64,000 nt of DNA from Gammaproteobacteria bacterium (GTDB taxonomy: Bacteria; Pseudomonadota; Gammaproteobacteria; Eutrophobiales; Eutrophobiaceae), in the NCBI GenBank assembly GCA_965221695.1, contig OZ244905.1:2720001-2784000 (forward strand), written 5' to 3'. Below are positions 6,858 to 30,472 of the stretch, piece after piece. The notes beneath the pieces are model-generated. The model worked only from the letters and a program-made list of their open reading frames with translations. It ran no database searches and was not told the origin of the DNA. Positions within the stretch are counted from its first letter, which is position 1, and each line of letters starts with the position of its first letter. Both the position numbers and the translations under genes were made by a program.

Positions 6858-6888
6858 AATCGCTGTGTCCTCTGTGGCTGACAGATAC

Positions 6889-10098
<3,210 letters not shown>

Positions 10099-10105
10099 CA
10101 ACAAA

Positions 10106-13293: not shown

Positions 13294-13362
13294 AGTATAA
13301 CCTCTCAGCCACGGAACAGGTTGTCCCGGGTTTTCTTGCCGCCAGCAACAATTCTCTATCGT

Positions 13363-14700: not shown

Positions 14701-16294
14701 AGAGAACCGGCAGAAACGCATACTGGTAGCCGACAGGATTTCGCCTGAAGGCAAGGAATTCCTTGACGGCCAGGAGAATTTCATCACAGATCATATCACC
14801 GGACTTGATGAGGCCGGGTTATGTGAGAAAATCGGCGCGTACCATGCGGTAATCGTGCGCAGCGCCACGACGATATCGGCGCCAGTCCTGGACGCGGCCG
14901 GCAGGCTTGAAGTAATCGGCAGGGCCGGCATTGGTGTCGATAATATTGACGTCAACCATGCCACGGGCAAAGGCGTTGTGGTGCTCAACACCCCGGACGC
15001 GAACGTAACGACAACGGCGGAACTGACGTTGGCGCATCTTTTTTCCCTGAGTCGAAACCTGCCCCAGGCCGACTCTTCAGTGAAAGCAGGAGAATGGAAG
15101 CGCGCCCGCTTCATGGGTGTGGAACTGAGCGGCAAGACCCTGGGCATCATCGGCTACGGGCATATCGGCAGGATTGTGGCAGCCAAGGCGCTGGCCCTGG
15201 AAATGCTGGTAATCGCCCATGATCCGTTTGTTACCGAAGAAAAGTTTCTCGCCGACGGCGTTACCGGCGTCGGTCTCGATGAACTGCTCAGCGAGGCGGA
15301 TTTTGTCAGCGTGCATTGCCCGTTGAATGACAAGACCCGTAACATCATCAATGCCGACCGGCTCAAGACAATGAAACGCGGCGCGCGGCTGATCAACTGC
15401 GCCCGCGGCGGGCTCGTCGACGAAACCGCGTTATATGAAGCGCTCAAGAGCGGGCAATTGTCCGGCGCGGCGCTGGATGTATTTTCCCGCGAGCCTCCGG
15501 ATGGTTCTCCCCTGTTGGAACTCGATAACGTATTGCTGACGCCGCACCTTGGCGCATCGACCCGGGAAGCACAGGCTGCGGCCGGCATCGAGATAGCACA
15601 GCAGGTCAGCATTTACCTGAAGACCGGTGAACCCATTAACGCGATCAACCTGCCGGCGGTATCATCGGAGGAACTGGTGAAGCTGCAGCCGTACATGGCG
15701 CTGGCGAGACGCCTGGGAAACCTGCTCGGTCTTATGATTCCGGACTCCATACACCGGCTGGAAGTGTCCCTGTTTGGCGAAGCCGCAGAGCGGGACATGA
15801 GCAGCATCGCCACGGAGGGGTTGGTGGGGTTATTGGGTGTCCATATGTCAACCGAGGTAAACCGGGTGAACGCAAAACATATCGCCGAGCAACAGGGTTT
15901 GAGCCTGGTGGAGGCCCGTGGTGGCGAACATCCGGATTACCATTCAGCGGTCAGCCTTTCGGTGCATAACGGTGAAGGCGAAACGCGGGTTGTCGGGACA
16001 CTGTTCCAAAGAAGATACCCGCGCCTGATCAGGATCAACGATTACGAGATAGAAGCCGTGCTGGAAGGACACCTGCTGGTTACCAGGCATAATGATCAAC
16101 CCGGCGTGATCGCCGCCATCAGCAACCTGCTGGCAGGTGAAAAGATCAACATTTCGCGTATGCAACTGGGGATCGTATCCGGCAGCGACAAAGCGGTCGC
16201 GGTGATTGGCGTGTCGACCCCGCTGAACAATGAACTGATGAAGGAACTGGCTCAAATCGAGGCGATAAACAAGGTGATACAGGTCAGCCTGTAA
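14693..16294 (+). CDS. serA: D-3-phosphoglycerate dehydrogenase, long form with intervening and ACT domains
   Basis: GRAGIGVDNID, GIIGYGHIG, INCARGG, TPHLGAST.EAQ and C-terminal HNDQPGVI ACT; 533 aa. Confidence 0.93.
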   Translation: MVKENRQKRILVADRISPEGKEFLDGQENFITDHITGLDEAGLCEKIGAYHAVIVRSATTISAPVLDAAGRLEVIGRAGIGVDNIDVNHATGKGVVVLNTPDANVTTTAELTLAHLFSLSRNLPQADSSVKAGEWKRARFMGVELSGKTLGIIGYGHIGRIVAAKALALEMLVIAHDPFVTEEKFLADGVTGVGLDELLSEADFVSVHCPLNDKTRNIINADRLKTMKRGARLINCARGGLVDETALYEALKSGQLSGAALDVFSREPPDGSPLLELDNVLLTPHLGASTREAQAAAGIEIAQQVSIYLKTGEPINAINLPAVSSEELVKLQPYMALARRLGNLLGLMIPDSIHRLEVSLFGEAAERDMSSIATEGLVGLLGVHMSTEVNRVNAKHIAEQQGLSLVEARGGEHPDYHSAVSLSVHNGEGETRVVGTLFQRRYPRLIRINDYEIEAVLEGHLLVTRHNDQPGVIAAISNLLAGEKINISRMQLGIVSGSDKAVAVIGVSTPLNNELMKELAQIEAINKVIQVSL

Positions 16295-16304
16295 ATTCCC
16301 AATA

Positions 16305-17549
16305 ATGTTAATCAAGGCTTTCAGAGGTTATCGCCCCGACAGGGACAGGGTTGCCAGGGTTGCATCAAGACCGTATGACGTGATCACAACGGAAGAAGCC
16401 AGGGAGGAAGCAGCCGGCAACCCGTATTCCTTCCTGAACATCGTCAAACCGGAGATCGGTTATCCCGCCGGCACAGAACCCGGTGACCCGGAAATGTACC
16501 GTGCCGCGGCGGCAAACTTCCAAGCCTTGGTCGATAGCGGGACATTTGTCCGGGATGAACAGGAATGCCTGTATATCTATGAACTAAGTGTGAACCGGCG
16601 TCCGAGGACGGGCATTGTCGCCGCCGCCGCTGTGGACGATTACCTGGACGGCCGTATCAGGAAACACGAATTGACCCGGTTTGACAAGGAGGCGGACCGG
16701 GCGAACCATATTCGTACAACAATGCTCAACGTGGAGCCGGTGATGTTTGCCTATCGCGATGACCGGCGAATGGGCGATCTTGTAGATTCAATCAAATCGG
16801 GGCAACCGGAGTACGACTTCGTTGACGAGGACTCGGTGCAGCACAGGTTCTGGATCGTCAATGAGCCTGGGACCGTTGCTGCGATTATCCGCGCATTTGC
16901 CGGCATCCCCGCAACTTACGTGGCTGACGGTCACCACCGCACCGCTGCTGCCGCGATCGTCAGCCAGCAACTGGACAGTGAAGGCCAAAAGAGCAATGCG
17001 GATCAGGGACATCATTTCTTTCTGGCTGTACATTTTCCCGACAGCGAACTGGAAATTCTCGATTACAACCGGCTGGTCACCGACCTCAACGCTCTTGAAC
17101 AAGATGAATTCCTGCGCGAGTTGGGGCTGGCGTTCGTAGTTGAGAGGACTGGAGGGCGGCCCGTAAGACCGAAGCAACCCGGCGTCATGGGCATGTACCT
17201 CGCAGGCAGTTGGTACCGCCTGAGCGCGCGGCCCGGTACGTATAATCCCGATGATGTGATGTCGGCGCTGGGCGTCAGCATCCTGTCCGACCTGATCCTG
17301 GCGCCCATACTGGGCATTCACGACCAGAGGACCGACCCGCGCATAATCTATGTCGGTGGCGTGAGCGGCACAGAGAAGCTCCAGGAGAGGGTGGACAGCG
17401 GCGAAATGGCTGTTGCCTTCACTCTGCACCCGGTATCGATACAGGAACTGATGGCCATCGCTGACTCCGGCAGGATTATGCCACCCAAGGCCACCTGGTT
17501 TGAACCGAAACTGCGCAGCGGCCTTGTAGTCTACAGTCTTAAGGACTAA
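16305..17549 (+). CDS. DUF1015 family protein (ParB/Srx-like DGHHR motif)
   Basis: PYDVI, IRKHELT, YVADGHHR and MPPKATWFEPKLRSGL; this family commonly neighbours serA. Confidence 0.85.
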   Translation: MLIKAFRGYRPDRDRVARVASRPYDVITTEEAREEAAGNPYSFLNIVKPEIGYPAGTEPGDPEMYRAAAANFQALVDSGTFVRDEQECLYIYELSVNRRPRTGIVAAAAVDDYLDGRIRKHELTRFDKEADRANHIRTTMLNVEPVMFAYRDDRRMGDLVDSIKSGQPEYDFVDEDSVQHRFWIVNEPGTVAAIIRAFAGIPATYVADGHHRTAAAAIVSQQLDSEGQKSNADQGHHFFLAVHFPDSELEILDYNRLVTDLNALEQDEFLRELGLAFVVERTGGRPVRPKQPGVMGMYLAGSWYRLSARPGTYNPDDVMSALGVSILSDLILAPILGIHDQRTDPRIIYVGGVSGTEKLQERVDSGEMAVAFTLHPVSIQELMAIADSGRIMPPKATWFEPKLRSGLVVYSLKD

Positions 17550-17643
17550 TTCCGCAGCTTTGCCAACCGTTCTATGCGGTTGCCCTGCGCAGCGATGCAG
17601 GGATAATGTGCTGTACCGCATAATCAGCTACAATAACCAGCCC

Positions 17644-17730
17644 GGAGAGGTGCCAGAGTGGTTGAATGGGGCAGACTCGAAATCTGTTGTACGCGTCAGC
17701 GTACCGTGGGTTCGAATCCCACCCTCTCCG
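17644..17730 (+). tRNA. tRNA-Ser (anticodon CGA), CCA not encoded
   Basis: Acceptor stem GGAGAGG/CCTCTCC, anticodon arm GCAGA-CTCGAAA-TCTGT, long variable arm, T-loop GGTTCGAATCC. Confidence 0.95.
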
Positions 17731-18087
17731 TAACATTCATGCCACAGGCGCATCTGGCGCCTGTGGCATGAATGTTGATGCAATGGGGTTCGAACCCACG
17801 GTAATTAAATACGGGTTCGACAAATTCGCTGGGAGCGAATTTGAACAGCGTAGCTGGCCCCGGAGGGGCAAACTACATGGATGTAGTTTGTAATCCCACC
17901 CTCTCCGTAACATTCATGGCACAGGCGCTTCTGTCGCCTGTGCCATGAATGTTGATGCAATGGGGTTCGAACCCACGGTAATTAAATACGGGTTCGACAA
18001 ATTCGCTGGGAGCGAATTTGAACAGCGTAGCTGGCCCCGGAGGGGCAAACTACATGGATGTAGTTTGTAATCCCACCCTCTCCGCCA
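17715..18087 (+). repeat. Two 177-bp tandem tRNA-linked repeats, each closed by a copy of the tRNA 3' end (rtT-like)
   Basis: AATCCCACCCTCTCCG recurs at 17715, 17892 and 18069 (period 177); the units are near-identical. Confidence 0.92.
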
Positions 18088-18088
18088 T

Positions 18089-19279
18089 CTAATAGTCCGG
18101 TAAAGTCCGGAGTCTTCCAAGCGCTTCAATGAAATGTGCTAGTGACAGGATGGTTGTGTCCTGGCTGCCGGGGAATGTATCTTCGCCAGTGTAAACAACA
18201 AATTTCTGTTTTACCTTTAAGTCTTCACAGGCCATGTGAAAGCCTTTTTTCAAGGTTGGAGTTCGGCTTGCTTTGATCTCAACGGCCCAGTATTCATCAA
18301 GACCAAACTCAATTACCAAATCAATTTCTGCCCCAGCAGATGTGCGATAGAAAAACGGATGAGCGCTTGAAGGTAAGGCGTTAATAATGGTCTCAATGAC
18401 AAACCCCTCCCAGCTTTTTCCGAATATAGGATGCCCCAACAAAGCTTCATAATTCGGAATTTGCAGCAAGGCATGCACAAGACCGCTATCGCGTACATAG
18501 GTACGTGGTGATTTCACCAGCCGTTTTTTGACGTTCCCATGCCAAGGCTCTAGCCTGCGAACCAATAACAAATCAACCATGAGGTCCAGATATCGACTAA
18601 CGGTGACACTCTCTACGCCAAGAGAGCTTGCGAGTTTTGACGCGTTCAGTAGTTCACCTTGTGTATGGGCAAGCATGGTCCAAAAGCGCATCAAGGTCGT
18701 TGCTGGAATTCTTGGTCCTAGCTGAGGGATGTCTCGTTCCAGATAGGTGCGAATAAAATTCTGCCGCCACTGGTGACTGGCCGCATCATCTTCAGCGGCA
18801 TAGCTGTCGGGAAACCCACCACGTATCCAGAGCTTTTGTAAGGGCTCTCCGGATGTTTCTTCAATTTCAAAAAGGTTTAAGCCAGTCAGTTCAGAGTAAT
18901 GAATGCGGCCAGCAAGGCTCTCAGAGCTTTGTTTTAGCAACTCATTGGTTGCCGATCCTAAAACAAGAAAGCGTCCGTTTCCGCGCCCCTCACGACGTCT
19001 GGCATCAATGATTCCGCGCAGTGACATAAACAAATCAGGGTAGCGTTGGACCTCATCGAGAATGACCAGCTTATCTGCATGTAGTTCTAGATAGTGGGCA
19101 GGGTCTTTGAGCTTTTGGAAATCCTCTGGGTTCTCGAGATCCAAATAAACAGATGGTTGCCCTTTGGCGATCTCATGGGCAAGCGTTGTCTTGCCAATCT
19201 GGCGCGGGCCAAGAATGGCAACAGCCGGATTTTGACTGAGACTTTTGATGATTTTCTGTGTAAGCTCTCTTTCATACAT
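18089..19279 (-). CDS. AAA+ ATPase of AAA_14/DUF4143 type with C-terminal nuclease-like motif
   Basis: GPRQIGKT, VILDEVQ, LGSA, ESLAGR, GGFP, KSPRTY..DSG and EIDLV...AVEIK; visibly more AT-rich than the flanks. Confidence 0.88.
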   Translation of the reverse strand: MYERELTQKIIKSLSQNPAVAILGPRQIGKTTLAHEIAKGQPSVYLDLENPEDFQKLKDPAHYLELHADKLVILDEVQRYPDLFMSLRGIIDARRREGRGNGRFLVLGSATNELLKQSSESLAGRIHYSELTGLNLFEIEETSGEPLQKLWIRGGFPDSYAAEDDAASHQWRQNFIRTYLERDIPQLGPRIPATTLMRFWTMLAHTQGELLNASKLASSLGVESVTVSRYLDLMVDLLLVRRLEPWHGNVKKRLVKSPRTYVRDSGLVHALLQIPNYEALLGHPIFGKSWEGFVIETIINALPSSAHPFFYRTSAGAEIDLVIEFGLDEYWAVEIKASRTPTLKKGFHMACEDLKVKQKFVVYTGEDTFPGSQDTTILSLAHFIEALGRLRTLPDY

Positions 19280-19659
19280 GCTAGCAATACTAACACAAAA
19301 TATTAAATATGCAAGGTAAATGTTTTTGTGGTGATCTGTTTCCAATGAAGGCAAAGCGGGATTAGAACCCGCGATACGGTACCGTGTTCACAACAAAAAC
19401 CGGCGCTTGGCGAGGAAGGTGTACAGGCGGGTGGTGAACAAGTCGCCGGTACGGCGAACTTTGCGAGGCACAAACCTCTTATCACCCAATGTAATTCGGT
19501 TTGTATAGTCCGCAACATCCGTAATTGGTTTTGAAAATCCTGTGTCTATGGACAACCCCCCCATACTTGATTAGCATAAGTCATAAGGAGGACCTATCGT
19601 GAACGTTGATTTCGTGACAAAGCGCCAGTCTGACAATCTCATGCAAATGCCGACCATCC

Positions 19660-20067
19660 ATGTCCAGGATTCGTTGTTATAGTATCGGTCGAGACCCCTC
19701 CGCATCCATCGTACTGCGTCATGAGACGGTGTCGCGCAGGCATGCAGAGTTGATTCCCGTATCCGGCGGGCAGGTATACGTCACGGATTGCGCCAGCGCC
19801 TGCGGGACTTTCATCGATAAGGGCAGGCGCTGGGAGAGGCTTACCCAGGATTTCGTCGGCGCAGGCGGCAGGGTGCGTTTCGGCGAGGTTGAGGTCAGCG
19901 TGCAGAGTCTGCTGGCGGACATTGCCCGCTTGCCTGCCGGCGGTGGAACGGGTCCCGGCGGTTCGGCGGAGCCCGGCGGTACCCCAGGCGCCGATAAGAA
20001 GAAACATGTGGATGCCGGCCGCGGGGTCATGCGCGACCCGGAAACGGGCGAGCCGATTCCCATGTAA
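19660..20067 (+). CDS. Small FHA-domain protein
   Basis: SIGRD...VSRRHAEL...DCASACGTF FHA signature, then a Gly/Pro linker and an RDPETGEPI tail. Confidence 0.82.
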   Translation: MSRIRCYSIGRDPSASIVLRHETVSRRHAELIPVSGGQVYVTDCASACGTFIDKGRRWERLTQDFVGAGGRVRFGEVEVSVQSLLADIARLPAGGGTGPGGSAEPGGTPGADKKKHVDAGRGVMRDPETGEPIPM

Positions 20068-20082
20068 TCGGACAGACAGACC

Positions 20083-20856
20083 ATGAACCAGAGAATGAGG
20101 ATATTCATAGGGGCGCTGGGCGCGGGCGTGATCTTCATCGGCCTGCTCAGCCTGTTTTTCTCCGAAGGTTTCTTCGCCGACTTCCTGCTGGACCGGAATT
20201 CGAAGTTCATGCCCTACCCGGTCACGATACAGAATATCATGTGGCTGGTGTTCTTCATCGGGGCGGGAGAATTGCTGTCGCGCTACCTGCAGACGGACCG
20301 GGAAATCAGCCAGATCCGCCTGGGACTGTTGCCGGAGGACAGCACAACCCTATTGCGCAAGCAAGATCTGGGCGGCGTGTACCAGCGCGTCAAGGAAACC
20401 ATGCACCCGGCGCCGGGCGCTGCGGAGGATTCCTATTTCCTGCAACGCCTGCTGTCCCGTTGTATCCTGCAGTTCCAGGTCAGCGGCGCCATTGATAAGG
20501 CAAACAACATGTTCAACTCCAGCCTGGAGTTGTTCCAGCACGAGGTCGAGCTGAGGTACAATGCCATTCGCTATATCGTCTGGCTGATCCCGACCCTGGG
20601 GTTCATCGGCACCGTGGTCGGCATCGCGCTGGCGCTCAGCAACGCCGGCAGCGTCGACAACTTCCAGGACCCCACCTTGCTGAAACAGCTTACCCAGAGT
20701 CTCGGCGTAGCGTTCTTTACCACCTTGCTGGCCTTGCTGCAATCCGCGGCGCTGATGTTCGCGCTGCATGTCGTACAAGGACAGGAGGAAGCGTCGCTGA
20801 ACCGGATAGGGCAGTATTGCCTGGATAACCTGATTAACCGGTTGTACGAGACTTGA
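20083..20856 (+). CDS. MotA/TolQ/ExbB-family ion-channel (motor) subunit
   Basis: About 4 TM segments; IPTLGFIGTVVGI and LGVAFFTTLLAL match the ExbB/TolQ channel helices. Confidence 0.88.
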   Translation: MNQRMRIFIGALGAGVIFIGLLSLFFSEGFFADFLLDRNSKFMPYPVTIQNIMWLVFFIGAGELLSRYLQTDREISQIRLGLLPEDSTTLLRKQDLGGVYQRVKETMHPAPGAAEDSYFLQRLLSRCILQFQVSGAIDKANNMFNSSLELFQHEVELRYNAIRYIVWLIPTLGFIGTVVGIALALSNAGSVDNFQDPTLLKQLTQSLGVAFFTTLLALLQSAALMFALHVVQGQEEASLNRIGQYCLDNLINRLYET

Positions 20857-21098
20857 TGGGGGTCGCCTGCGCGAGACAAATCGGCAGGACAGCCGATTTG
20901 CGCAGCGACTGCTGCCCGCAGGGTTGTATCCAGGGAAGGATGCAATGAGTGACGGAAGGAGAGAGGAATGACGGGTGGGTTCAAGAATGACGGTTAAGGG
21001 GCGAAGGGAGGTGTCGGCAAGTGGGTGTCGGCAAGTTGAACGCAGGGTGGTTTTCTGTTAAATTTTCATCAACCGCAACACCAGAAGGGGAGGACATC

Positions 21099-21758
21099 AT
21101 GCCGGTAAAACGCGATGCGGACGGGAACATCATAAAGGAACAGACAAGAACTACCGGAGTGGGTGATCCGGTGTTGCCGACCTTGGGGCGCTCCACTGTC
21201 GGCGCCACGGTCGGCCCCGGCAGGTCTCCCGAGACCAACCCCGGCCAGTCATCGGGTTATGAGGCCCAGACGGTGCTGGCAGGTTCGCCCCGTGTCGCGG
21301 AAGGGGAAGCCAGGACCCGGATCTACCGGCCCGGCAGGACGGGGCGGCAACAGCCGGAGACACCGGCTCCAGGTACGGGCGCTGAGGACGCGACGTCCTC
21401 TGCCATGGACGACCCGCCCGTAGGCTGGCTGGTCGTCGTCAGTGGGCCGGGACAGGGGAACTACATGGCCGTCGGCAACGGTTCGAATTCAGTCGGACGC
21501 GATGAGCGCGAGCGAGTGCGCGTGGATTTCGGTGACGAGTTGATCTCCCGCAGCGACCATTCAACGATCACCTACGATCCCAGGGGTAAGAAGTTTTACC
21601 TGCAGCACGGCGCCGGAAAAAACCTCACTTACCTGGAAGGCAAACCTGTCCTGGCGCCGACCGAACTGCCCGGGTTTTCCCGGATCACGATTGGGAACAC
21701 CGAATTGCTGTTCATCCCGCTCTGTTGCGATCAGTTTGACTGGGACGACTACACGTAA
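21099..21758 (+). CDS. FHA-domain protein with disordered Thr-rich N-terminus
   Basis: PVGWLVVVSGPGQG...NSVGRD...ISRSDH...KNLTYL; GGAGG RBS before ATG 21099. Confidence 0.85.
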   Translation: MPVKRDADGNIIKEQTRTTGVGDPVLPTLGRSTVGATVGPGRSPETNPGQSSGYEAQTVLAGSPRVAEGEARTRIYRPGRTGRQQPETPAPGTGAEDATSSAMDDPPVGWLVVVSGPGQGNYMAVGNGSNSVGRDERERVRVDFGDELISRSDHSTITYDPRGKKFYLQHGAGKNLTYLEGKPVLAPTELPGFSRITIGNTELLFIPLCCDQFDWDDYT

Positions 21759-21767
21759 CAGGTCGTT

Positions 21768-22751
21768 ATGAATGCCCTCAAGCAGTGGGTGTCGGGAGAG
21801 CAGATCCAGGGAGACCGAAATTACCAGGAAGACTATTTCTCGCTCAGCCTGCTTTCCCAGGGCCGGGAACCTCCGGATGAAGACTGCCTGCTGCTCGTGC
21901 TGGCCGACGGCATGGGCGGACATGCCGGCGGCGCCGTTGCCAGCGAGACGGTAGTCAAGGCATTCCAGGAGGGCTTCAACCGCGATGCAACCGGGATCGC
22001 AGAGCGTTTCAGCGCCGGCATCGACACCGCCAACAACGCCGTCAGGGAAAAACAACAGGCCGATCCGGAACTGTCCGAGATGGGTTGCACCCTGGTGGCC
22101 GCGCTGGTGGTCGGGTCGACCCTTTACTGGACCAGCGTCGGCGATTCCATACTGTGGCTGTGCCGGCAGGGACATTTGCAGAGATTGAATGCGGACCATT
22201 CCATGAAACCGCTGTTGCTGGACCTGGTCGAATTGGGCAGGATGACCGAAGAAGAGGCGCTGAGCGATTACCGGATCAACCAGCTACGCTCGGCCATTTT
22301 CGGCGAGGAGGTTCAGCTGATTGACATGAACGCGGACGGTTTCCAACTGGAGAGTGGTGATCTCGTTTTACTGGCCAGCGACGGCCTGGAAACCCTGTCC
22401 GGGCAAAGCATGACAGATGTCATCGAGGCCCGCGCGGACGATGCCGATGAGATAGTGAACGCCCTGCTTGACGCAGTTGCCATGGCGGGGGTGCGCGGGC
22501 AGGACAATACTACGGCGCTGGCGTACCGGGTCGGCCAGGGGCATGATTCACTGCACGGCGTACTGGCGGGCATCAGCACAGATGACAAGGATGCCGTATT
22601 CGAGCAGCAAGTGAAACCCTCCCGAACCTGCGAGTTGCGCCCGGCACAGGAACAGGAAGCGCCGGCAAAGCGGCCCGGCATCTTCGCCCGAGCCATACAT
22701 GCCTTCTCCGGTAGACCGGCGCGTCAAGACACTCGTGACGGGAAGCAATGA
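21768..22751 (+). CDS. PP2C/PPM-family Ser/Thr protein phosphatase
   Basis: RNYQED, VLADGMGGHAGG, VGDS, DHS, LASDGL and GQDNTT motifs. Confidence 0.93.
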   Translation: MNALKQWVSGEQIQGDRNYQEDYFSLSLLSQGREPPDEDCLLLVLADGMGGHAGGAVASETVVKAFQEGFNRDATGIAERFSAGIDTANNAVREKQQADPELSEMGCTLVAALVVGSTLYWTSVGDSILWLCRQGHLQRLNADHSMKPLLLDLVELGRMTEEEALSDYRINQLRSAIFGEEVQLIDMNADGFQLESGDLVLLASDGLETLSGQSMTDVIEARADDADEIVNALLDAVAMAGVRGQDNTTALAYRVGQGHDSLHGVLAGISTDDKDAVFEQQVKPSRTCELRPAQEQEAPAKRPGIFARAIHAFSGRPARQDTRDGKQ

Positions 22752-24487
22752 CAGCAATACGAGCATTGATGTTGTGTGCGCTTCTGGTGTACCTGCCGGC
22801 AGGCAACAGCCAGACGACCGGTGATGACGCAGAAGCGCCGGCTGTTTCCTCTGCCACTGCACCCGCTGTGCCTGCTGATACGCCCGTGACAACGGAGGAC
22901 CCAGCGCAAATAGCCGCCCCCTCAGCGGATACAGCCACGGCGATTGCCGCGGTTGTGCAGGTTCCCGAACCCGTAGATTTCAGTGCGGTGCGGCCCCACC
23001 TGGTGGTCATAAGAGAAGGGATGGACGCCGCCGCACGTCGCACGCCGGGATTCAGCATCAGCGACCAGGGCCATATCCTGACTTATTCCGGAGAATTACG
23101 CGCCCGGGAGTACTACCTTGTCTCGGTTGCAGGCGGTCAGGTCTTTACTGCTGCGCTGCTTGATGAAGATGAAGACACCGGCCTCATGCTACTGAGGATC
23201 GCAGGAGAAGGGCACGGCCTCACCGCCCTGAAGTTTGCCAGAACGACGCTGGAAGCCGCGGTGCCGCTCTATGCAGTACGGTTCGACCCGGTGCGGGCGG
23301 AGCCGTTCGTGCCCGTTCCCGGCACGGTCACGCGGTTGCCTGCAACGGATGAGGAGACACCGGCAATCGTGCATAATGCCCTGTTCAATACGGCGGCCGC
23401 CGGGACGCCCTTGTTCAACCGTTGTTACCAGGCGGTCGGTGTCAGCGTGCTGCAAAGGAAGGGCTTCCCGCCGAGAACTCTCGATCCCCAACAACAGGGT
23501 AGCGCCATCTCCCTGGCGGCCTACTCGTTGAGCGTGATCCTGGCGTCGGCCAACCTGACCCTGCCCATCGCTGAGGCGGAGTGCCAGAGTGCGGAGGAGG
23601 AGGCGCGACTGCGGCTGGAACAACTTCAGCAGGAAAAAGAGGCGGAGCGGGCAAATGCCGAAGCCCTGGCCCTTGCCGCCGCGGAGGAAGCGCTGCGCAG
23701 GGAGGCGGTAATGAACCTGGAGCGGGAAGCAGCGCAACAGCAGCTTGAACAGGCGCGCCAAGAGAAAGAAGCGGCCCTGCAGGCGGAGCGGGCAAGTGCC
23801 GAAGCCGATAAGCGCCGTTTGGAAGAAGAAGCGCAGCAACAACTTGAACAGGCGCAGCAGGAGAAGGAACAGGCCCTGCAGGCACAACAGCAGGAGAATG
23901 AACAGGCTCTGCAGGTGGAGCGGCAGGAGACCGAACAGGCCCGGCGGGAAGCCCGGCAGGCGACGCATACGGGGAAACAGATCCTGCTGTTATCGCTAGC
24001 GGTCGTCTTCGTCCTGGCGCTGGTCTTCTTCCTGGTCCTGCGCGCCAGGCGTAAACACCTGCAACGCGTGGAACAGGAAAAACAGCAGTTCGCCCAGGAC
24101 CTGGACAGGGCAGAGGCAGACCTGTCAGACGCCTCCGAGAGGGAGCAGCTACGCGCCGGCGCCCCCGACGTGTTTATCGAGGGTGTCACGCCGCAGAACG
24201 AGCGCATCGCCCTGAAAATACCCGGCGCCTCACTGGTCAAACCCTCAGGTGTCACGGTAGGCAGGAGTCCCTCCGAATCCGAGTTCGTCATCAATCACGA
24301 ACAGGTCTCCCGCCGCCATTTCCGCCTCATGCTGGTGTCTGGGCAGGTGATGATCGAAGATATGGGCTCGACCAATGGGACCGTCGTGAACGGCGTGCCC
24401 CTCAGTCCCGGCGCCCGGCAGACGCTGGGCGACGGCAGCCGCATGCAGGTCGGGCGCGTGACGATGACGGTGCGGATAGGTCTCTGA
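22748..24487 (+). CDS. Membrane protein: signal peptide, degenerate trypsin-like domain, coiled coil, TM, C-terminal FHA
   Basis: GFSISDQGHILT and HNALFNTAAAGTPLFNRC..AVGV resemble trypsin/HtrA motifs; E/Q/A coiled coil; hydrophobic ILLLSLAVVFVLALVFFLVL; VGRS..VSRRH..DMGSTNGT. Confidence 0.82.
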   Translation: MTAIRALMLCALLVYLPAGNSQTTGDDAEAPAVSSATAPAVPADTPVTTEDPAQIAAPSADTATAIAAVVQVPEPVDFSAVRPHLVVIREGMDAAARRTPGFSISDQGHILTYSGELRAREYYLVSVAGGQVFTAALLDEDEDTGLMLLRIAGEGHGLTALKFARTTLEAAVPLYAVRFDPVRAEPFVPVPGTVTRLPATDEETPAIVHNALFNTAAAGTPLFNRCYQAVGVSVLQRKGFPPRTLDPQQQGSAISLAAYSLSVILASANLTLPIAEAECQSAEEEARLRLEQLQQEKEAERANAEALALAAAEEALRREAVMNLEREAAQQQLEQARQEKEAALQAERASAEADKRRLEEEAQQQLEQAQQEKEQALQAQQQENEQALQVERQETEQARREARQATHTGKQILLLSLAVVFVLALVFFLVLRARRKHLQRVEQEKQQFAQDLDRAEADLSDASEREQLRAGAPDVFIEGVTPQNERIALKIPGASLVKPSGVTVGRSPSESEFVINHEQVSRRHFRLMLVSGQVMIEDMGSTNGTVVNGVPLSPGARQTLGDGSRMQVGRVTMTVRIGL

Positions 24488-25201
24488 ATGAACCGTTCAT
24501 TGTGGTGCGGTTTGATATTTCTCAGCCTCTGGGGTCTGAGTTACCAGGGTGGCGCGGATATTGATGACCAGGAAGAACATTTCAGGGAGGAGCAGGGGGC
24601 GCAACAGGATCAGGAAGCCGCGCGACGGGAACGCAAGCGTGCCCGACAGGCAGAACAGGAGGCGCTCCGGCAACAGGAAGCGGCGCGCCAGCGCGTGGTT
24701 CAGCAAAATCTGTTCGTAACCTTGCTGGCTCTGTTGACCCTGCTGGCCTTGATACTGGCCTTGAGAAAACCCCGGCAGGCCATTGTTTGGGCCGCCGGCC
24801 ACGCAATCGAACCACTCAGTCGGCGCTTCAAACCGGCAGGGCGCTTGCCCGCGCCGGGCGCAGCCCGCGCCGGGACGGCAAACGTCGTACTTACGGGCTT
24901 TGACAGCCGGGGCAAACCGGTGAATATCCCGTTGCCGGAGGAGGAACTGGATCGGAAACGGGGCGGTTTCACCCTGGGGCGCCATCACCTGCTGGTCGAT
25001 ACGGCGCTGGACGATGACCGGATATCGAAGCGCCATGCCCGGTTCACCCGCAACGGTCACGGCTATTTTATCGAAGACCTCAATTCGAGAAACGGCACTG
25101 TGATCAACGGTGAGCAACCCTGCGCGCCGTTCAAACCCATGCGAATCAGGCCCGGCGACACGGTGCGGCTAGGCGGCATGGAGTTGCTCGTATCGGCCTG
25201 A
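24488..25201 (+). CDS. Membrane-anchored FHA protein (short coiled coil, TM, FHA)
   Basis: N-terminal hydrophobic segment, charged helix, TM LFVTLLALLTLLALILAL, LGRH..ISKRH..DLNSRNGT. Confidence 0.85.
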   Translation: MNRSLWCGLIFLSLWGLSYQGGADIDDQEEHFREEQGAQQDQEAARRERKRARQAEQEALRQQEAARQRVVQQNLFVTLLALLTLLALILALRKPRQAIVWAAGHAIEPLSRRFKPAGRLPAPGAARAGTANVVLTGFDSRGKPVNIPLPEEELDRKRGGFTLGRHHLLVDTALDDDRISKRHARFTRNGHGYFIEDLNSRNGTVINGEQPCAPFKPMRIRPGDTVRLGGMELLVSA

Positions 25202-25214
25202 TTCGGAAGCGCCC

Positions 25215-26018
25215 GTGAGGCTACGCAGCAAGGAGATCAATGTCTTCAACATGTCCGCGCTGGACCTGTTCGCCTCCGCGCTGGGTGCGTTTATCCTTAT
25301 TTCCGTGGTCTTGTTTCCCTATTTTCCCAACACCGGCGATTCCCAGGAACGGGTGGACGAGGTCAAGGCGCAACTGGCTGAGGCCAATGCGCGATTGGAG
25401 GAAACCAGCGCCGAACTGGAGCAGGTCCGCGCCCGGTTGAACCCCGCCCTGGAACAAGAACTGCAGGTCGCACGAGAACAACTCGGCGCGTGCCAGGCCC
25501 GACTCCGGGAGGCAGAGGCCGCGCTAAACGCCTGCCAGGTTGAACAGCGAGAAGTTGCATCATTGGATTCCGCGCTGGGCGCCTGCGAGAACCGCAACCG
25601 GCAGATGCAACAGGAACTGCAATCCTGCGAGAATGAATTGCGCAAGAAATTCGTGCTGGTCGTGATCAGCTGGGGCACGCCGGACGATATCGACCTGCAC
25701 GTGATCGATCCGCAAGGCCGGGAGTTCTTCTACGGGCGCAAACACATCCCCGGTTCCCTGGCAAAACTGGAAGAGGACAACACCAGAGGTCCCGGCAATG
25801 AGATCTGGCTGCACCCGGCCGCGGAGCCGGGCGCCTACGAGGTTTACTACAAATATTACGATGGATCAACCGGCAACGTGCAGGTGCGCGGCGCGGCGCT
25901 GACGCCCCGCGGCAGGACGGAGTTGCCGGACATCACTCTGCGGTACGTGGGTGAGAAGCCCCTGGTGGCAACCATTTTCGTCAATGAGGATGGCAACGCT
26001 GAGGTGAGGGCATGGTAA
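25215..26018 (+). CDS. ExbD/TolR/MotB-like single-pass protein with coiled coil and YfaP/DUF2135-like C-terminal domain
   Basis: FNMSALDLFASALGAFILISVVL has an Asp in the TM helix; Cys-punctuated coiled coil; ISWGTPDDIDLHVIDPQG...DNTRGPGNEI. Confidence 0.7.
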   Translation: MRLRSKEINVFNMSALDLFASALGAFILISVVLFPYFPNTGDSQERVDEVKAQLAEANARLEETSAELEQVRARLNPALEQELQVAREQLGACQARLREAEAALNACQVEQREVASLDSALGACENRNRQMQQELQSCENELRKKFVLVVISWGTPDDIDLHVIDPQGREFFYGRKHIPGSLAKLEEDNTRGPGNEIWLHPAAEPGAYEVYYKYYDGSTGNVQVRGAALTPRGRTELPDITLRYVGEKPLVATIFVNEDGNAEVRAW

Positions 26019-26149
26019 CGCGGCGGGAGGGGAATTTTCCGCATTGACACGATTTCCCAGGCCCCCTTAGAATACGGTTTAACCGGTGACACAATTTAAT
26101 TCTGTCACCGGATTTACGGGGCAAACATAACAAACAAAGACGGCCTTCC

Positions 26150-28756
26150 ATGAACTCCGACCACCTGCATGCCCTACCGCCCGGCACGCGCCTTGAAGAA
26201 TTTCGGCTGGAGGCGCAGGTGGGCGCCGGCGGGTTCAGCATCACCTATCGGGCCTATGACGAATTACTGGACAAGGTGGTGGCCGTCAAGGAATACCTGC
26301 CGCGGGATTTCGCCACCCGCACCGCCGGCAATACAGTGGCGCCCATATCCGATGCGGACGCCCGGGATTACCAGTGGGGCCTGACCCGGTTCCTGGACGA
26401 GGCCCGCACGCTGGCCAGGTTCGACCATCCGCATCTCAACAAGGTGCGTCGTTTCTTCGAGGCCAACGGCACGGCCTACATGGCGCTGGAGCATATCCAT
26501 GGCGAGACCCTGGCTACCCGGTTAAGCCGCGAGCGGCGCTTGCCGGAAACGGACCTGCTGCGCCTGCTGGAGGAAGTGTTATCGGGACTTGCTGTGATTC
26601 ACGAGGCTGGCTACGTGCACCGGGACATCAAACCGGGCAACCTGATGCTGCGCGAGGAAGACGACAGCATAGTGCTGCTGGACTTCGGCGCCGCGCGCCA
26701 GGCAGTGGGCCAGAGTTCCAAGTCAATCACCAGCATCCTGACACCGGGCTATGCCCCGATAGAGCAGTACGAAAGCAAAGCGGACGCCGTCGGACCGTGG
26801 AGTGATATCTATGCATTGGGGATGGTGGCGTACAAGTGCATCAGCGGCGCGGGTGACGGGGAGTTGCCCGATGCCGTGACCCGGGCCCGCTCCCAACGCA
26901 AAGGGGGTAAGGACCTGGCGATGGCGGCGGAGGTGGGCCAGAGCAGGTACAGTGCGAAGCTGCTGGCGGCGATAGACTGGGCCATCGAGGTGGATGAGGA
27001 GTCCCGGCCGCAGGGGGTGGGTGAGTGGAGTGAGGCGCTGGTGGGGAGCGGGAGCAAGCAACGAGCCGCCAAACCGGCGCCTAATACAACGGCACGGTCT
27101 GCAAAGGCTCCGGCCACCGAGCGCCAGGGTATGAATTGGTACAGCATGGCCCTGACCGCGGTGATAGTGGTGTTACTGGGAGCGAGCGCCTGGCAGGGCT
27201 GGCGGCTGTATCAGGGGATGCCCGGGCTTGGCGTAGACGGCGCCGCCACGGCAGTTGAGTCGCAGGCAAACGCACAGGGCAAAGCAGAGTTAGCAGCAGA
27301 ACCCTATGCACAAACACCAACGGTAACGCCAGAACAAGGCTCCGGGCCTGACGCGCCCACACTGGCCGCGCCGGTTGAGGAAGACGAAGTCGCCCGGCTG
27401 CTGGCTGCAGCCGAAGCCGACTTGGAGGCAAGACGCCTGACCAGTCCGCAGGGGAACAACGCCTGGGAGAAGTACCGGCGGGTATTGGGTTTATCCTCCG
27501 CGCACCCCGAGGCCATAGCGGGGATGGAGCGGGTGATCGGGAGTTACATGGACCTGTTCGGCGCTGTTCTGGAGCAGGAGGATTTTGACCAGGCGGAGGG
27601 GTATCTCTCACGCATCCGCGACCTGCACCCGGATTCGCCACTCTTGTTGACGGGGAAAGAACGTTTGGAACAAGCCCGGCAGGCTCATGTCGAGCGGTTG
27701 GCGGAAGAAGAGCGCCTGCGCCAGGCCGAGGAAGCGGCGCGCCAGGCGGAACAGGAGCGCCAGCGAATAGCACAGGAAATCGAGAGACACTGGCAGTCCT
27801 TTGAGACGGCAATGCAGCAAGACAAATTGGACCGGGCGGAAGACAGTCTCAACCTCGTGCGGGAGTTGGACTCGGACGCGCCGGGGTTAGCGGATGCGGA
27901 ACGACGCCTGTCACAGGCGCGGGAAGCATCCCGGCAGAAGGCGCTGCAGTATGCCGGTGAGATGGTCTCCATCCCTGCCGGCAGTTTCCGCATGGGGGAC
28001 CTGACAGGCGCTGACGCTGAGAAACCGGTCCACAGTGTGCGAGTCGCGGCCTTCAGCATGGGCAAGTATGAGGTAACGGTGGGCCAGTTCCAGCGGTTTG
28101 TGGAGGCGACGGGGTACCTCACGGATGCGGAGCGTTATACGGACGGCAAAGCAGGTTGTTCTGTCTATACAACAAAAAGATGGAAGTACACCGAGGGCAA
28201 GAGTTGGCGCAATCCGGGGTTTTCAGTCGGAGACAAGCACCCGGTGGTGTGCGTGAACTGGAATGATGTGCAGGCGTTCGTGAAGTGGCTGAACGGCAAT
28301 ACCGATGGGGATTTCCGCTTGCCGACCGAGGCGGAGTGGGAGTATGCGGTGCGCGCCGGGAGCAGTACGAAGTATCATTTCGGCAATGATGAGTCACAAC
28401 TGTGCCGGTTTGCCAGCCATGCGGACAGCGGGACGGATATTGATTGGAAAAACAAGTCCTGCTCGGACGGTGTGGGCGAACGCACCGCCGAAGTGGGCCG
28501 TTACCAGCCGAACAGTTTCGGGCTGTATGACATGCACGGCAATGTCTGGGAGTGGGTGACAGATTGCTGGAATGAGAGTTATGTGGGCGCCCCGACAGAC
28601 GGTAGCGCCTGGACGAATGGGGACTGCAGCCGGCGCGTCATTCGGGGCGGGGCCTGGGACAGCTCACCGTGGAACCTGCGTTCCGCGCACCGTTACGGGA
28701 GCTCCCGTTCGAATCACAGCTCTTATCTGGGCTTTCGCTTGGCCCGGGACAACTGA
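26150..28756 (+). CDS. Membrane Hanks-type Ser/Thr kinase with helical repeats and C-terminal FGE-sulfatase (SUMF1-fold) domain
   Basis: GAGGFS, VAVKE, HRDIKPGN, DFG, GYAPIEQ, SDIYALG; TM near aa 330-350; FRMG, KYEVT, RLPTEAEWEYA, GLYDMHGNVWEW, RGGAW, GFRLAR. Confidence 0.93.
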   Translation: MNSDHLHALPPGTRLEEFRLEAQVGAGGFSITYRAYDELLDKVVAVKEYLPRDFATRTAGNTVAPISDADARDYQWGLTRFLDEARTLARFDHPHLNKVRRFFEANGTAYMALEHIHGETLATRLSRERRLPETDLLRLLEEVLSGLAVIHEAGYVHRDIKPGNLMLREEDDSIVLLDFGAARQAVGQSSKSITSILTPGYAPIEQYESKADAVGPWSDIYALGMVAYKCISGAGDGELPDAVTRARSQRKGGKDLAMAAEVGQSRYSAKLLAAIDWAIEVDEESRPQGVGEWSEALVGSGSKQRAAKPAPNTTARSAKAPATERQGMNWYSMALTAVIVVLLGASAWQGWRLYQGMPGLGVDGAATAVESQANAQGKAELAAEPYAQTPTVTPEQGSGPDAPTLAAPVEEDEVARLLAAAEADLEARRLTSPQGNNAWEKYRRVLGLSSAHPEAIAGMERVIGSYMDLFGAVLEQEDFDQAEGYLSRIRDLHPDSPLLLTGKERLEQARQAHVERLAEEERLRQAEEAARQAEQERQRIAQEIERHWQSFETAMQQDKLDRAEDSLNLVRELDSDAPGLADAERRLSQAREASRQKALQYAGEMVSIPAGSFRMGDLTGADAEKPVHSVRVAAFSMGKYEVTVGQFQRFVEATGYLTDAERYTDGKAGCSVYTTKRWKYTEGKSWRNPGFSVGDKHPVVCVNWNDVQAFVKWLNGNTDGDFRLPTEAEWEYAVRAGSSTKYHFGNDESQLCRFASHADSGTDIDWKNKSCSDGVGERTAEVGRYQPNSFGLYDMHGNVWEWVTDCWNESYVGAPTDGSAWTNGDCSRRVIRGGAWDSSPWNLRSAHRYGSSRSNHSSYLGFRLARDN

Positions 28757-28846: not shown

Positions 28847-30472
28847 TCACCGCATCGATTTTTGCAGTACCGAGAAGTTTCTTACCCAAGGCTCTAGTTT
28901 GCGTATTTCATCGGGCAAATCATCTATAGCTCTTTCGGCAAGCTCATAGTCATGGTACAGACCATAAAACACGCGATAGTAAGTTATCTGCTCGATCTCG
29001 ATCCTGATATAGGCAATCTGCTGTGTCAGGTTATTCTGTTTGAGGAAATTTAGCACACGTTCTTCACTGGAAAAGCTGGCCAGTTGCAAAGTGTAGTGAT
29101 ACGGAGATTGTGCGGCGACCCAGTCTTCCCGCCTGATAGCGGTCTCACCGGCGTCAGAGGCATCCTCGCCAGCCAACTCATCTTCATCGGAAATGACCTC
29201 GCTGGTGGTCGCAACCAGATCGGAAATGGCCTCTGGTACAGCCGCAATGTATTCCGCTGTCGCTGGTACAGGGCTGGTGTCCGCGGTCTCTGCAACAGTC
29301 TCCGGCGTTTCCTCCTCCGCGGCGTTCAGCGCGATCTCGGCGGTGTCCTCATCCGTCTGAGCAGCTACGATGGTCGGCGTTTCTTCGACAGCAGGCGCTG
29401 TGTCTTCTGCTTCAGTTGCCTCAGCAGCAGTTTGAGCAAGGCTGGTCTCCGCGGTCTCTGCAACGATCTCCGGCGCTTCCTTCTCCGCATCGAACAGTGC
29501 GGTCTCGGCTGTGTCTTCGTCCGACTGAGCGGCTATGGTCGGCGCTTCCTCCTGCGTGACGCTCAGTGCGGTCTCGGCAGCGTCCTCATCCGGCTGAGCA
29601 GCTATAATCGGTGTTTCCTCGACGGCAGGTACCGTATCTTCTTCAGTTGCCTGCGCAAAGGGTTCTGTTGTTTCCTGCATTGCAGGCGCTTGCGATACGG
29701 TCGTGTCCTCTTCAATATCGACATAAGCAAGTCTTTGTAAGCTTTCTTCTGCCTGTTGCAGACCCCCGGCGGCCGCGCGTTGATACCATTTTTTCGCCTC
29801 CACCAGGTCCTTTTCTACCGCGTAACCATTTTCATAGTACACGCCCATGTTGAATTGCGCCTGTGGGACATCGGCGTCAGCGGCTTTTCTGAACCAGAGT
29901 AGCGCTACATCATAGTCCTGGTCGACGCTGTAACCGAAGGCGTACATGACAGCCAGGCTGTATTGCGCATTTCCGTTTCCCTGCTCTGCTGCTTGGCGGA
30001 AAAGCCGGGTGGCTGTTTCATAATCCCGGGTAATCTGCTCACTGCCGTTGAAGTACAAAAGGCCAAGGTTGAACAGCGCATCCGATTGCCCGGCCGCCGC
30101 GGCCAGCTTCCACCATTGCATGACTTTAGACGGGTCTTTTGTGACACCATCACCGTGCAAGTACTTGACGCCGAGCTCGAATTGGGCGTCGGGGTGCCCT
30201 TGATCCGCCGCAAGCAAGTACCATTTTACTGCTTCGGCAGAATCTGCGTTAACGCCATGGCCATAGTCATACATGAGGCCAAGCATTCTTTGCGCATCCG
30301 AGTTGCCGTCCTCAGCCAGTGGTTGCAGTATTTCGTAGGCTTTTTCGTAGTCTTTGGCCAGGTAGGCCTGTCTCGCCGTTTCAAAAGATTGCGCCAGCAC
30401 AGGGCCGGAAAATACCAACCCCAATAACAGGAAAGGAATTAACTTGGTCAGCATAAACCGTATCTTTGACAT
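28847..30472 (-). CDS. Secreted Sel1-repeat protein with acidic repeat linker and C-terminal SPOR (DamX-like) domain
   Basis: Signal peptide; about 5-6 AQxxLGxxYxxGxGVxxD repeats; A/E/T-rich repeats; YTLQLASF...YRVFYGLY..AERAI..LP..PWVR. Confidence 0.85.
   Translation of the reverse strand: MSKIRFMLTKLIPFLLLGLVFSGPVLAQSFETARQAYLAKDYEKAYEILQPLAEDGNSDAQRMLGLMYDYGHGVNADSAEAVKWYLLAADQGHPDAQFELGVKYLHGDGVTKDPSKVMQWWKLAAAAGQSDALFNLGLLYFNGSEQITRDYETATRLFRQAAEQGNGNAQYSLAVMYAFGYSVDQDYDVALLWFRKAADADVPQAQFNMGVYYENGYAVEKDLVEAKKWYQRAAAGGLQQAEESLQRLAYVDIEEDTTVSQAPAMQETTEPFAQATEEDTVPAVEETPIIAAQPDEDAAETALSVTQEEAPTIAAQSDEDTAETALFDAEKEAPEIVAETAETSLAQTAAEATEAEDTAPAVEETPTIVAAQTDEDTAEIALNAAEEETPETVAETADTSPVPATAEYIAAVPEAISDLVATTSEVISDEDELAGEDASDAGETAIRREDWVAAQSPYHYTLQLASFSSEERVLNFLKQNNLTQQIAYIRIEIEQITYYRVFYGLYHDYELAERAIDDLPDEIRKLEPWVRNFSVLQKSMR

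Follow-up and report, generated by a model that had tools for sequence, protein, structure and literature searches.

Can an ion-driven motor of the bacterial envelope be placed under the control of Ser/Thr phosphorylation, and what would such a machine be for? The question is raised by a cluster of eight genes at positions 19660-28756 of a 64,000-nucleotide (nt) stretch of a gammaproteobacterial genome (GenBank assembly GCA_965221695.1, contig OZ244905.1, positions 2,720,001 to 2,784,000), referred to below as the window. In this cluster, a gene for a channel protein of the TolQ/ExbB/MotA family and a gene for its candidate partner subunit are combined with genes for a kinase, a phosphatase and four proteins with FHA domains. 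We propose, with a probability of roughly one half, that the cluster encodes an envelope module, spread horizontally, with a 5:2 ion motor of the Tol/Exb type at its core and Ser/Thr phosphorylation as its switch. An initial annotation of the window had described eight co-oriented genes in this interval, and all eight were recovered as open reading frames (ORFs) on the plus strand, overlapping or separated by short spacers:

p1, 19660-20067 (+): small soluble FHA protein of 135 amino acids (aa) (Pfam FHA, E 3e-13)
p2, 20083-20856 (+): TolQ/ExbB/MotA-family channel protein (A subunit) of 257 aa (PF01618)
p3, 21099-21758 (+): soluble adaptor, disordered in its N-terminal half and ending in a divergent FHA domain (Pfam FHA, E 4e-6)
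p4, 21768-22751 (+): PP2C-type Ser/Thr phosphatase (Pfam PP2C_2, E 3e-13)
p5, 22748-24487 (+): protein with a predicted signal peptide, periplasmic pseudo-trypsin domain, coiled coil, transmembrane (TM) helix and cytoplasmic FHA domain
p6, 24488-25201 (+): protein with a predicted signal peptide, short coil, TM helix and cytoplasmic FHA domain (FHA, E 3e-17)
p7, 25215-26018 (+): putative B subunit with an Asp-bearing helix, a coiled coil and a predicted TerD-fold head (no Pfam domain above the cut-off)
p8, 26150-28756 (+): Hanks-type Ser/Thr kinase with a TM helix, a helical periplasmic region and an FGE-sulfatase domain

The FHA, channel, PP2C and kinase-FGE identities given in the initial annotation agree with the Pfam and NCBIfam matches, and, as it had also stated, no TonB/TolA, type VI secretion system (T6SS), flagellar or pilus family was matched by Pfam or NCBIfam in the eight genes. 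The cluster is more than a chance assembly, since conserved homologues exist for each of its genes and the set as a whole is met again in other phyla.

The channel protein and its candidate partner

The p2 protein is a member of the TolQ/ExbB/MotA family in which the pore threonines are kept. It matches MotA_ExbB (PF01618) at 41.7 bits against a cut-off of 22.9, all relatives scanned also score above this cut-off, and an AlphaFold model built on 20 homologues reached a pLDDT of 85.3. Among the Foldseek matches listed for this model (ranks 1-49), all are TolQ, ExbB, MotA, ZorA or PomA chains; the best superposition was that on TolQ (8vlw_B; TM-scores 0.65/0.74, rmsd 4.0). Residues T171, T177, T213 and T214 of the last two helices are invariant in 20/20 aligned sequences and would sit in the pore, the threonines of the last two membrane helices being those that we take to face the Asp of the B subunit. 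At E <= 0.001 the p2 family comprises 2323 proteins, a number that likely includes weaker TolQ/ExbB relatives; the databases searched give the family no functional name, and no relative was found in the phage collection at E 1e-10. The window's own genome holds eight MotA_ExbB-family genes.

The candidate partner, p7, is a predicted B-subunit-like protein by virtue of its N-terminal helix. The helix is almost unchanged across phyla, and its Asp17 is invariant in 23/23 close homologues and in 109/109 representatives of at least 200 aa. A profile of residues 1-47 matched 1117 representative clusters at E <= 0.001 (510 at E <= 1e-10), and in the best 150 representatives of the family the match is N-terminal, bar a few with short leaders. 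The helix is followed by a coiled-coil stalk (approximately residues 44-143) whose length varies among relatives; its two cysteines, C138 (invariant in the 23 close homologues) and C93 (present in at least 90% of them), would fit a periplasmic, disulfide-linked dimeric coil. Co-folding of p2 with residues 1-60 of p7 at 1:1 gave a score of 0.01 against a mark of 0.32; the controls did not fold, and the score speaks neither for nor against a complex.

The C-terminal 125 residues of p7 form a head that, in the predicted structure, is a TerD-type beta sandwich. The model has a pLDDT of 73 overall and of 84-94 across most of the head (residues 143-267). In VIA-align the head reached Z 10.8 with 2qz7_B (rmsd 3.2, 121 residues aligned) and Z 9.3 with 2kxt (rmsd 3.2, 120 residues aligned), the next match for the head having Z 6.6. 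Foldseek of the p7 model returned a TerD match at E 2.7e-3 with probability 1.00 and nothing at E <= 0.001, while Pfam gave 0 matches for the isolated head up to E 10. The head contains invariant acidic, Gly and Asn residues (D158, D160, E186, D188, N189, G192, G194 and E196), of which the acidic and Gly residues may recall the Ca sites of TerD.

The initial annotation had called p7 ExbD/MotB-like, with a YfaP-like head. The former name holds for the N-terminal Asp-bearing helix and fails for the remainder, which has no ExbD or MotB match in Pfam; p7 would fall outside the ExbD, TolR and MotB families because it is without their periplasmic domains, i.e., the ExbD/TolR domain or the MotB plug and OmpA-like peptidoglycan (PG)-binding domain. 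The YfaP-like fold gives way to TerD, leaving a faint likeness to DUF2135: PF09906 has 0 matches for the head and one at E 0.026 in a single homologue (15 bits against a cut-off of 22), and the nearest Atlas clusters of the head are DUF2135 with a score of 0.89, under the 0.9 level. Which heads are borne by this type of anchor was counted in the best 150 representatives of the p7-helix family less the 41 shorter than 200 aa: 58 of the remaining 109 have a vWA head by Pfam, and the TerD-type head of the window is thus a less common alternative on the same anchor.

Phosphorylation proteins and bitopic FHA proteins

The kinase p8 combines a Pkinase domain (E 2e-31) with an FGE-sulfatase domain (E 1e-67), for which we assume a C-type-lectin fold. 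The VAVK, HRDIKPGN and DFG motifs, which we take to be the kinase motifs, are intact in its translation, and the kinase is apparently active. The same applies to the phosphatase p4, which matches the NCBIfam Stp1/IreP-type model at E 7e-41 (below the equivalog cut-off) and is apparently active, with intact DGMGGH, VGDS, SDG and DNTT motifs, presumably those of the PP2C metal site. The extra or outer domains of the kinases differ among the clusters and include FGE, PG-binding, beta-helix, RDD, TerB-DnaJ and PDZ-PAN.

The two soluble FHA proteins flank the channel gene. In p1 a variable linker leads to a conserved C-terminal motif of the PETGE type, whose T129, G130 and E131 are invariant in 7/7 sequences. 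The longest ORF of p3 begins with GTG at 21021 (21021-21758), and all 7 aligned homologues begin at its residue M27, i.e., at ATG 21099, which is preceded by a GGGGAGG ribosome-binding site 6-7 nt upstream and is most likely the true start. With this start the p2-p3 spacer (20857-21098) of approximately 240 nt is unusually long, those of relatives being 4-16 nt and that of a Parabeggiatoa locus (L078) approximately 620 nt. Within the spacer of the window, an imperfect inverted repeat is centred on the region 20868-20910. T99 in the disordered half of p3 (numbered on the longer ORF) is invariant in 7/7 sequences, as are G159, R160, S176, R177, H180 and N201 of the FHA domain, in which the phosphothreonine-binding residues are kept. 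The Thr of the p1 tail and T99 of p3 are candidate phospho-acceptor or FHA-ligand sites, which we liken to the switches of GarA/OdhI and Fha1.

The bitopic proteins p5 and p6 belong to a set of FHA proteins with protease-type periplasmic domains. By eye, p5 would consist of a signal peptide, a periplasmic domain, a coil, a TM helix and a cytoplasmic FHA domain (E 2e-16); its match to Trypsin_2 in Pfam is weak (28.4 bits against 27.6), and it has other residues at all three places where active paralogues have His, Asp and Ser. Relatives of the cluster carry a conserved bitopic pair of a p5-type pseudo-protease and an active-looking protease. Among the aligned pseudo-proteases, Asp and Ser are replaced in 5/5 and His in 4/5, the copy of a sister species (G003) retaining His; the aligned active-looking proteases keep His, Asp and Ser in 4/4. 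The p6 protein aligns with the active trypsin-TM-FHA paralogue, the whole protease domain being missing. Its short form is common only to the window and to genome G008 (98% identical, a 237-aa frame), whereas G001 has a counterpart open frame of 412 aa and G009 one of 454 aa. From these comparisons, p6 is what remains of a trypsin-TM-FHA gene whose protease domain was lost recently.

Recurrence and mobility of the cluster

A genome scan with p2 yielded at least 578 loci, of which the best 80 span 49-92% identity and are labelled Gammaproteobacteria, Alphaproteobacteria, Latescibacterota, Gemmatimonadota, Acidobacteriota and Binatia; one p2-locus record is that of Candidatus Spongiihabitans thiooxidans. 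The gene order of eight loci inspected by hand, and of a plasmid locus (L099), is as follows:

L087, Corallincola platygyrae: kinase, FHA, channel, p3-type FHA, PP2C, pseudo-trypsin-FHA, trypsin-FHA, Asp-helix-vWA, trypsin
L043, Vicinamibacterales: channel, p3, PP2C, two trypsin-FHA, Asp-helix-vWA, FHA, kinase
L011, Binatia: FHA, channel, p3, PP2C, two trypsin-FHA, truncated p7, kinases, FGE
L013, Latescibacterota: trypsin, trypsin-FHA, p7-type, FHA, channel, p3, kinase-FGE, FGE; no PP2C seen
L079, Alphaproteobacteria: vWA-TM-FHA, FHA, channel, p3, PP2C; no B subunit seen
L078, Parabeggiatoa: like L079 plus kinases; no B subunit seen
L049, Ca. Spongiihabitans: channel, then directly a p7-type gene; no phosphorylation genes among the ORFs scanned
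L026, Longimicrobiales: channel convergent with an Asp-helix-vWA gene; no phosphorylation genes among the ORFs scanned
L099, Rhizobium leguminosarum plasmid: PP2C, FHA, channel, Asp-helix-TerD-like gene directly after it, FHA protein; PDZ-bearing kinases

FHA genes are present in 6/8 of the inspected loci, PP2C in 5/8, a kinase in 5/8 and a B subunit in 6/8. In 5/8 loci the gene just before the channel gene is of the p1 type, and in the Vicinamibacterales locus such a gene is found elsewhere in the cluster; a p3-type gene follows the channel gene directly in 6/8 loci and in 6 genomes of the genus. The order small FHA protein, channel, p3 adaptor, PP2C recurs in Gammaproteobacteria, in Alphaproteobacteria and in the record labelled Binatia, and partly rearranged orders are found in Latescibacterota and Acidobacteriota. 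The companions of the motor pair comprise the small FHA protein, the p3 adaptor, the PP2C phosphatase and between one and four membrane kinases, whose outer domains differ; further companions are bitopic proteins that have an FHA domain on the cytoplasmic side and, in the periplasm, a trypsin-like or vWA domain. A single B gene is present in the window and in every relative where a B gene was found. Two of these loci contain genes that may be broken: the p7-type gene at 15541-16038 of L011 stops at 165 aa, within the head domain, and two overlapping PP2C-matching ORFs lie in different frames at 11368-12860 of L079.

The association was also examined in the class and in the genus. Orthologues of p2 (E <= 1e-40) occur in 8/401 evenly drawn genomes of the class, the window's own included, and 5 of the 7 others were examined. 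In 5/5 a same-strand FHA gene is found within 5 kb of the channel gene, and in 4/5 a PP2C gene within 7 kb, the fifth being interrupted by a contig end. Within the genus, p2 (E < 1e-80) and p3 (E < 1e-40) are found, adjacent, in the same 10/23 genomes; the p7 helix occurs in 9 of these 10 and additionally in G017, and it was not found in G006 (88% complete, 760 contigs). On the conjugative plasmid pRlBT01d of Rhizobium leguminosarum BT01 the channel protein is 45% identical to p2; between the B subunit and the FHA protein of this plasmid locus is a 1610-aa ORF without a Pfam family (13027-17859). Co-conservation of motor and phosphorylation genes, which the initial annotation had set beforehand as the test of its idea, was therefore observed in 6/8 cross-phylum loci, in 5/5 class genomes and on the Rhizobium plasmid.

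By its distribution the cluster is accessory, in line with the accessory island that had been suggested, and it appears to be horizontally spread: it occurs patchily, in 10/23 genus and 8/401 class genomes, and in genome G009 approximately 1.9 Mb separate it from the orthologue of the window's flanking DUF1015 gene. The G+C content of the cluster is 0.60-0.63 vs approximately 0.50-0.56 in the flanks. Between records that bear the labels of at least five phyla, almost all of them metagenome-assembled, p2 identity remains 49-60%, which suggests repeated horizontal transfer. Related loci elsewhere have insertion sequence (IS), group II intron and AbiEii-like neighbours. The version of a sister species (L097/L098, G003:C1:706000-742000) spans approximately 23 kb and contains four kinases with RDD, PG-binding, TerB + DnaJ and FGE extra domains; it also includes an IS transposase gene and, just upstream of its FHA-channel pair, a SIR2 gene that matches defence SIR2 models at E 2e-15. 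In genome G019 the spacing from the DUF1015 gene to a Sel1-like gene is approximately 5 kb vs 11.3 kb in the window; an island boundary is not claimed from this, the Sel1 match being 41% identical and possibly a paralogue.

Upstream of the cluster, one further feature bears on its possible mode of insertion:

tRNA-Ser (anticodon CGA), 17643-17731 (+), found by ARAGORN

The 3' 25 nt of this tRNA gene recur at 17883 and 18060 as two degenerate copies, 84% identical, and the three 3'-end copies delimit a pair of 177-nt tandem units with 95% likeness (17706-18084). The copies look like att-like scars, and the tRNA gene is a possible integration site at the edge of a variable region; no integrase was seen near the repeats. 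Next to them is a gene for an AAA_14/DUF4143 ATPase (18089-19354, -), which matches the PADLOC candidate system PDC-S01 at E 3e-95.

Mechanism, competing explanations and significance

In the module that we propose, five p2 and two p7 chains would form a proton-driven unit, and the disulfide-stapled stalk of p7 would carry a metal-binding head across the periplasm, a candidate ligand of this head being the pseudo-protease p5. The kinase p8 would respond to an envelope cue via its FGE-fold domain and would phosphorylate the conserved Thr in the C-terminal motif of p1 and T99 of p3, in the manner of GarA/OdhI or Fha1. Contacts between FHA domains and phosphothreonine would then tether p1, p3, p5 and p6 to the motor at its cytoplasmic face, turning the motor on or off, and the phosphatase p4 would reset the switch. 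As the purpose of the module we tentatively favour envelope surveillance, directed at stress or at phages and competitors, over a housekeeping function, and rank it above that of a structural or adhesive force transducer, although we would not quite stake even odds on it.

Several observations weigh against this proposal. The Foldseek E-values of p2 are weak (3e-3 to 5.5e-2), and its sequence profile has 0 matches among solved structures at E 0.1. For p7, no ExbD, TolR or MotB match was obtained in Pfam or NCBIfam, Pfam giving coiled-coil noise, and the comparison of its profile with solved structures by sequence likewise returned coiled-coil noise and no relative. The p2-p7 complex, its 5:2 stoichiometry, ion flow, phosphorylation, gating and the sensing of a periplasmic ligand are steps that we infer from the gene content. 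The eight loci inspected by hand were picked from the best 80 with a view to taxonomic breadth and not by random draw; L078 and L079 have phosphorylation genes with no detected B subunit. The window copy itself may be partly decayed, since the sole active protease has been deleted in the window and in G008. The argument for defence is contextual, because the cluster contains no recognisable cytoplasmic effector and no PADLOC system was matched: PADLOC returned generic kinase, SMC-like coil and weak ZorA/ZorB matches only. The SIR2 gene of the sister species may be an unrelated insertion, given the IS nearby. Finally, L026 and L049 have the motor pair with no phosphorylation genes among the ORFs scanned, as would be expected if the two sets of genes were mere neighbours in a variable region, functionally unlinked. 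Such an unlinked arrangement is nevertheless very improbable: a fixed gene order recurs across phyla, p2 and p3 have an identical presence-absence pattern across the 23 genus genomes, and on the co-conservation of motor and phosphorylation genes we reject the chance-neighbour hypothesis.

The motor half of the cluster has a published cousin. According to PMC12204202 (2025), TolQ-like genes co-occur with genes for helix-vWA proteins with a conserved Asp, mostly in heterologous pairs, and these pairs are proposed to rotate within the pentamer, transducing force; the family described there was seeded from an Idiomarina protein. These motors and the window cluster share a TolQ-family gene with no separate tolR or exbD gene, a partner consisting of an N-terminal helix with a proton-binding Asp fused to a periplasmic head, and a conserved threonine ring in the channel, and most p7 relatives are vWA-headed as theirs are. 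The window cluster differs from them in having one B gene and no heterologous pair, a TerD-fold head where theirs is vWA, and the additional kinase, PP2C and four FHA proteins. The word "kinase" is absent from the text of that paper, and "FHA" occurs in it only within the word "FhaC" (its supplements lying outside the scope); PMC12505986, in the text consulted, classifies non-flagellar homologues without a phosphorylation association. A literature search, with subscription journals and supplements outside its scope, found no coupling of a TolQ/ExbB/MotA-type gene with FHA, PP2C and kinase genes. The phospho-coupling and the TerD-type head appear to be new; the description of the system as undescribed in the initial annotation stands for the phospho-coupling and falls for the TolQ-like gene with an Asp helix-head partner, a pairing that PMC12204202 already reports for vWA heads.

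A motor of the published kind seems to be present in the same genome as the window cluster. At this second locus (L096, G000:C1:2585000-2600000) a MotA_ExbB gene (6299-7096) is accompanied by a gene for a 448-aa protein without a family and by two different genes for N-terminal Asp-helix-coil proteins, one (8461-9546) with a Pfam vWA match and one (9543-10547) without. The locus looks like the paired type of PMC12204202. The p2 protein is approximately 33% identical to the L096-type channel, only over the C-terminal 140-150 residues, and a match to the L096-type channel is present in nearly all genus genomes.

These parallels feed an explanation in which the machine is the same and its purpose is structural: the motor would pull or turn the TerD-like or vWA head on an outer-membrane or cell-wall partner, in tethering, adhesion or surface movement, and phosphorylation would tune it to growth or wall state. 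The force transduction proposed in PMC12204202 for TolQ-like motors with an Asp-helix-vWA B subunit speaks for it, together with the vWA head in 58/109 full-length p7-helix representatives and the PG_binding_1 domains of some cluster kinases. We regard a structural purpose as rather unlikely nonetheless, in view of the patchy and mobile distribution (8/401 class and 10/23 genus genomes), the two divergent versions of the cluster within one genus, the mobile elements and defence-type genes among the neighbours, and the lack of an outer-membrane partner gene conserved in the cluster. An analogy from gliding points the same way as the structural explanation. In the Agl-Glt gliding machinery of Myxococcus, a TolQR-like motor works with FHA-bearing membrane proteins (GltG), and the window cluster likewise combines a TolQR-like motor with membrane proteins that have cytoplasmic FHA domains. 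NCBIfam matches to GltG in the cluster are weak and at domain level (E 1e-5 to 7e-3, the cut-off being 650 bits); unlike Agl-Glt, the cluster has no other Glt genes and includes a kinase and a PP2C phosphatase.

Another explanation keeps the defence-like context and reverses the flow of information: the motor unit would sense envelope disturbance and report it to the FHA/kinase network, or phosphorylation would open a depolarising ion leak, leading to abortive infection. The motor unit of Zorya has been proposed to sense envelope disturbance, and the window cluster shares with ZorAB the MotAB-family 5:2 type, a defence-like context, a ZorA chain (8vvn_D) among the fold matches of p2, and weak matches to Zorya models (PADLOC E 7.5e-6 for ZorA and 3.8e-4 for ZorB, the latter over residues 6-70 of p7 with model ZorB1; NCBIfam ZorA_4 E 9e-4). 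The cluster contains no other obvious effector. All Zorya matches are, however, far below the family cut-offs, p2 with its 257 aa is without the long cytoplasmic tail that defines ZorA (ZorA models have 413-683 positions), no ZorC, ZorD or ZorE match was found among the 9 proteins scanned, and no PG-binding ZorB domain is present. The direction of signalling cannot be distinguished by sequence data, and we consider a sensing or leaking motor quite unlikely. The exclusion of known defence systems asked for in the initial annotation agrees with PADLOC, in which no system fits.

The least probable of the explanations weighed here is that the genes form an accessory threonine-phosphorylation pathway of a T6SS. 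In that pathway the kinase PpkA, the PP2C phosphatase PppA and Fha1 act as writer, eraser and reader, and the window cluster follows the same logic, with a periplasmic-domain-bearing membrane Hanks kinase as writer, a PP2C protein as eraser and FHA proteins as readers, an envelope machine being controlled in both; p6 has in addition a weak match to NCBIfam TagH (TIGR03354; E 1.5e-9, 38 bits vs a cut-off of 120). In the window cluster, unlike the T6SS pathway, a Tol/Exb-type channel pair would be the object of control, and the FHA proteins number four to five, including two bitopic ones whose periplasmic domains are protease-like. No match to the T6SS sheath protein VipB/TssC (PF05943) was found in the window's single-contig genome, which is 96.85% complete, and no T6SS family was found in the cluster, in the neighbour genes scanned or in the related loci scanned; in agreement with the initial annotation, the cluster maps onto no T6SS locus.

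If the phosphorylation-switched motor that we propose is real, its significance lies in the type of control. The known 5:2 motors (Mot, Ton, Tol, Agl, GldLM and Zorya) are thought to be switched by plugging, partner binding or peptidoglycan docking, so that control by a kinase, a phosphatase and FHA proteins would be a new principle for these motors, and bacterial Hanks kinases would gain a defined mechanical target. The widest form of the claim is possible and on balance doubtful: this would be the first 5:2 ion motor to be engaged under a eukaryote-like system of Ser/Thr phosphorylation with writer, eraser and readers. It would serve the envelope as an immune or stress organ, widespread and passed on horizontally, in which several sensor kinases, their outer domains being interchangeable, act through FHA adaptors on one Tol-like motor with a Ter-type head (TerD or vWA) probing the periplasm. 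The TerD-fold and vWA heads, with the TerB-bearing kinase of the sister cluster, give a tangible point of access to the Ter stress genes, which lack an explanation, and the enigmatic Ter/TerY-P stress genes would, if the proposal is true, be tied mechanistically to the proton-motive force. The TerY-P triad, as outlined in PMC10542128 (citing Anantharaman et al. 2012), consists of a vWA protein, a PP2C phosphatase and a Ser/Thr kinase and forms a mobile unit. On that outline, the likeness lies in the TerD-fold head of p7, the vWA heads of its relatives and the TerB domain of one G003 kinase; unlike the soluble TerY and TerD proteins, the Ter-type domains here would be periplasmic motor heads, and TerY-P, unlike the window cluster, is without a channel gene. 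The window cluster has a PP2C phosphatase and a kinase and, in place of the vWA protein, the TerD-fold head of p7. In PADLOC p4 matched 0 families, and no TerY-P model was among the best 25 of the 35 matches of p8. Cultured carriers of related clusters are Corallincola platygyrae JCM 18796 (L087) and Rhizobium leguminosarum BT01, on its plasmid pRlBT01d (L099).

Downstream of the cluster in the window are genes for a TonB-dependent receptor (32060-34333, +) and for a Sel1-repeat/SPOR protein (28847-30472, -), neither of which has a counterpart beside the cluster in the other loci examined; the Sel1-repeat/SPOR gene contains internal 108-nt repeats at 29269-29613.

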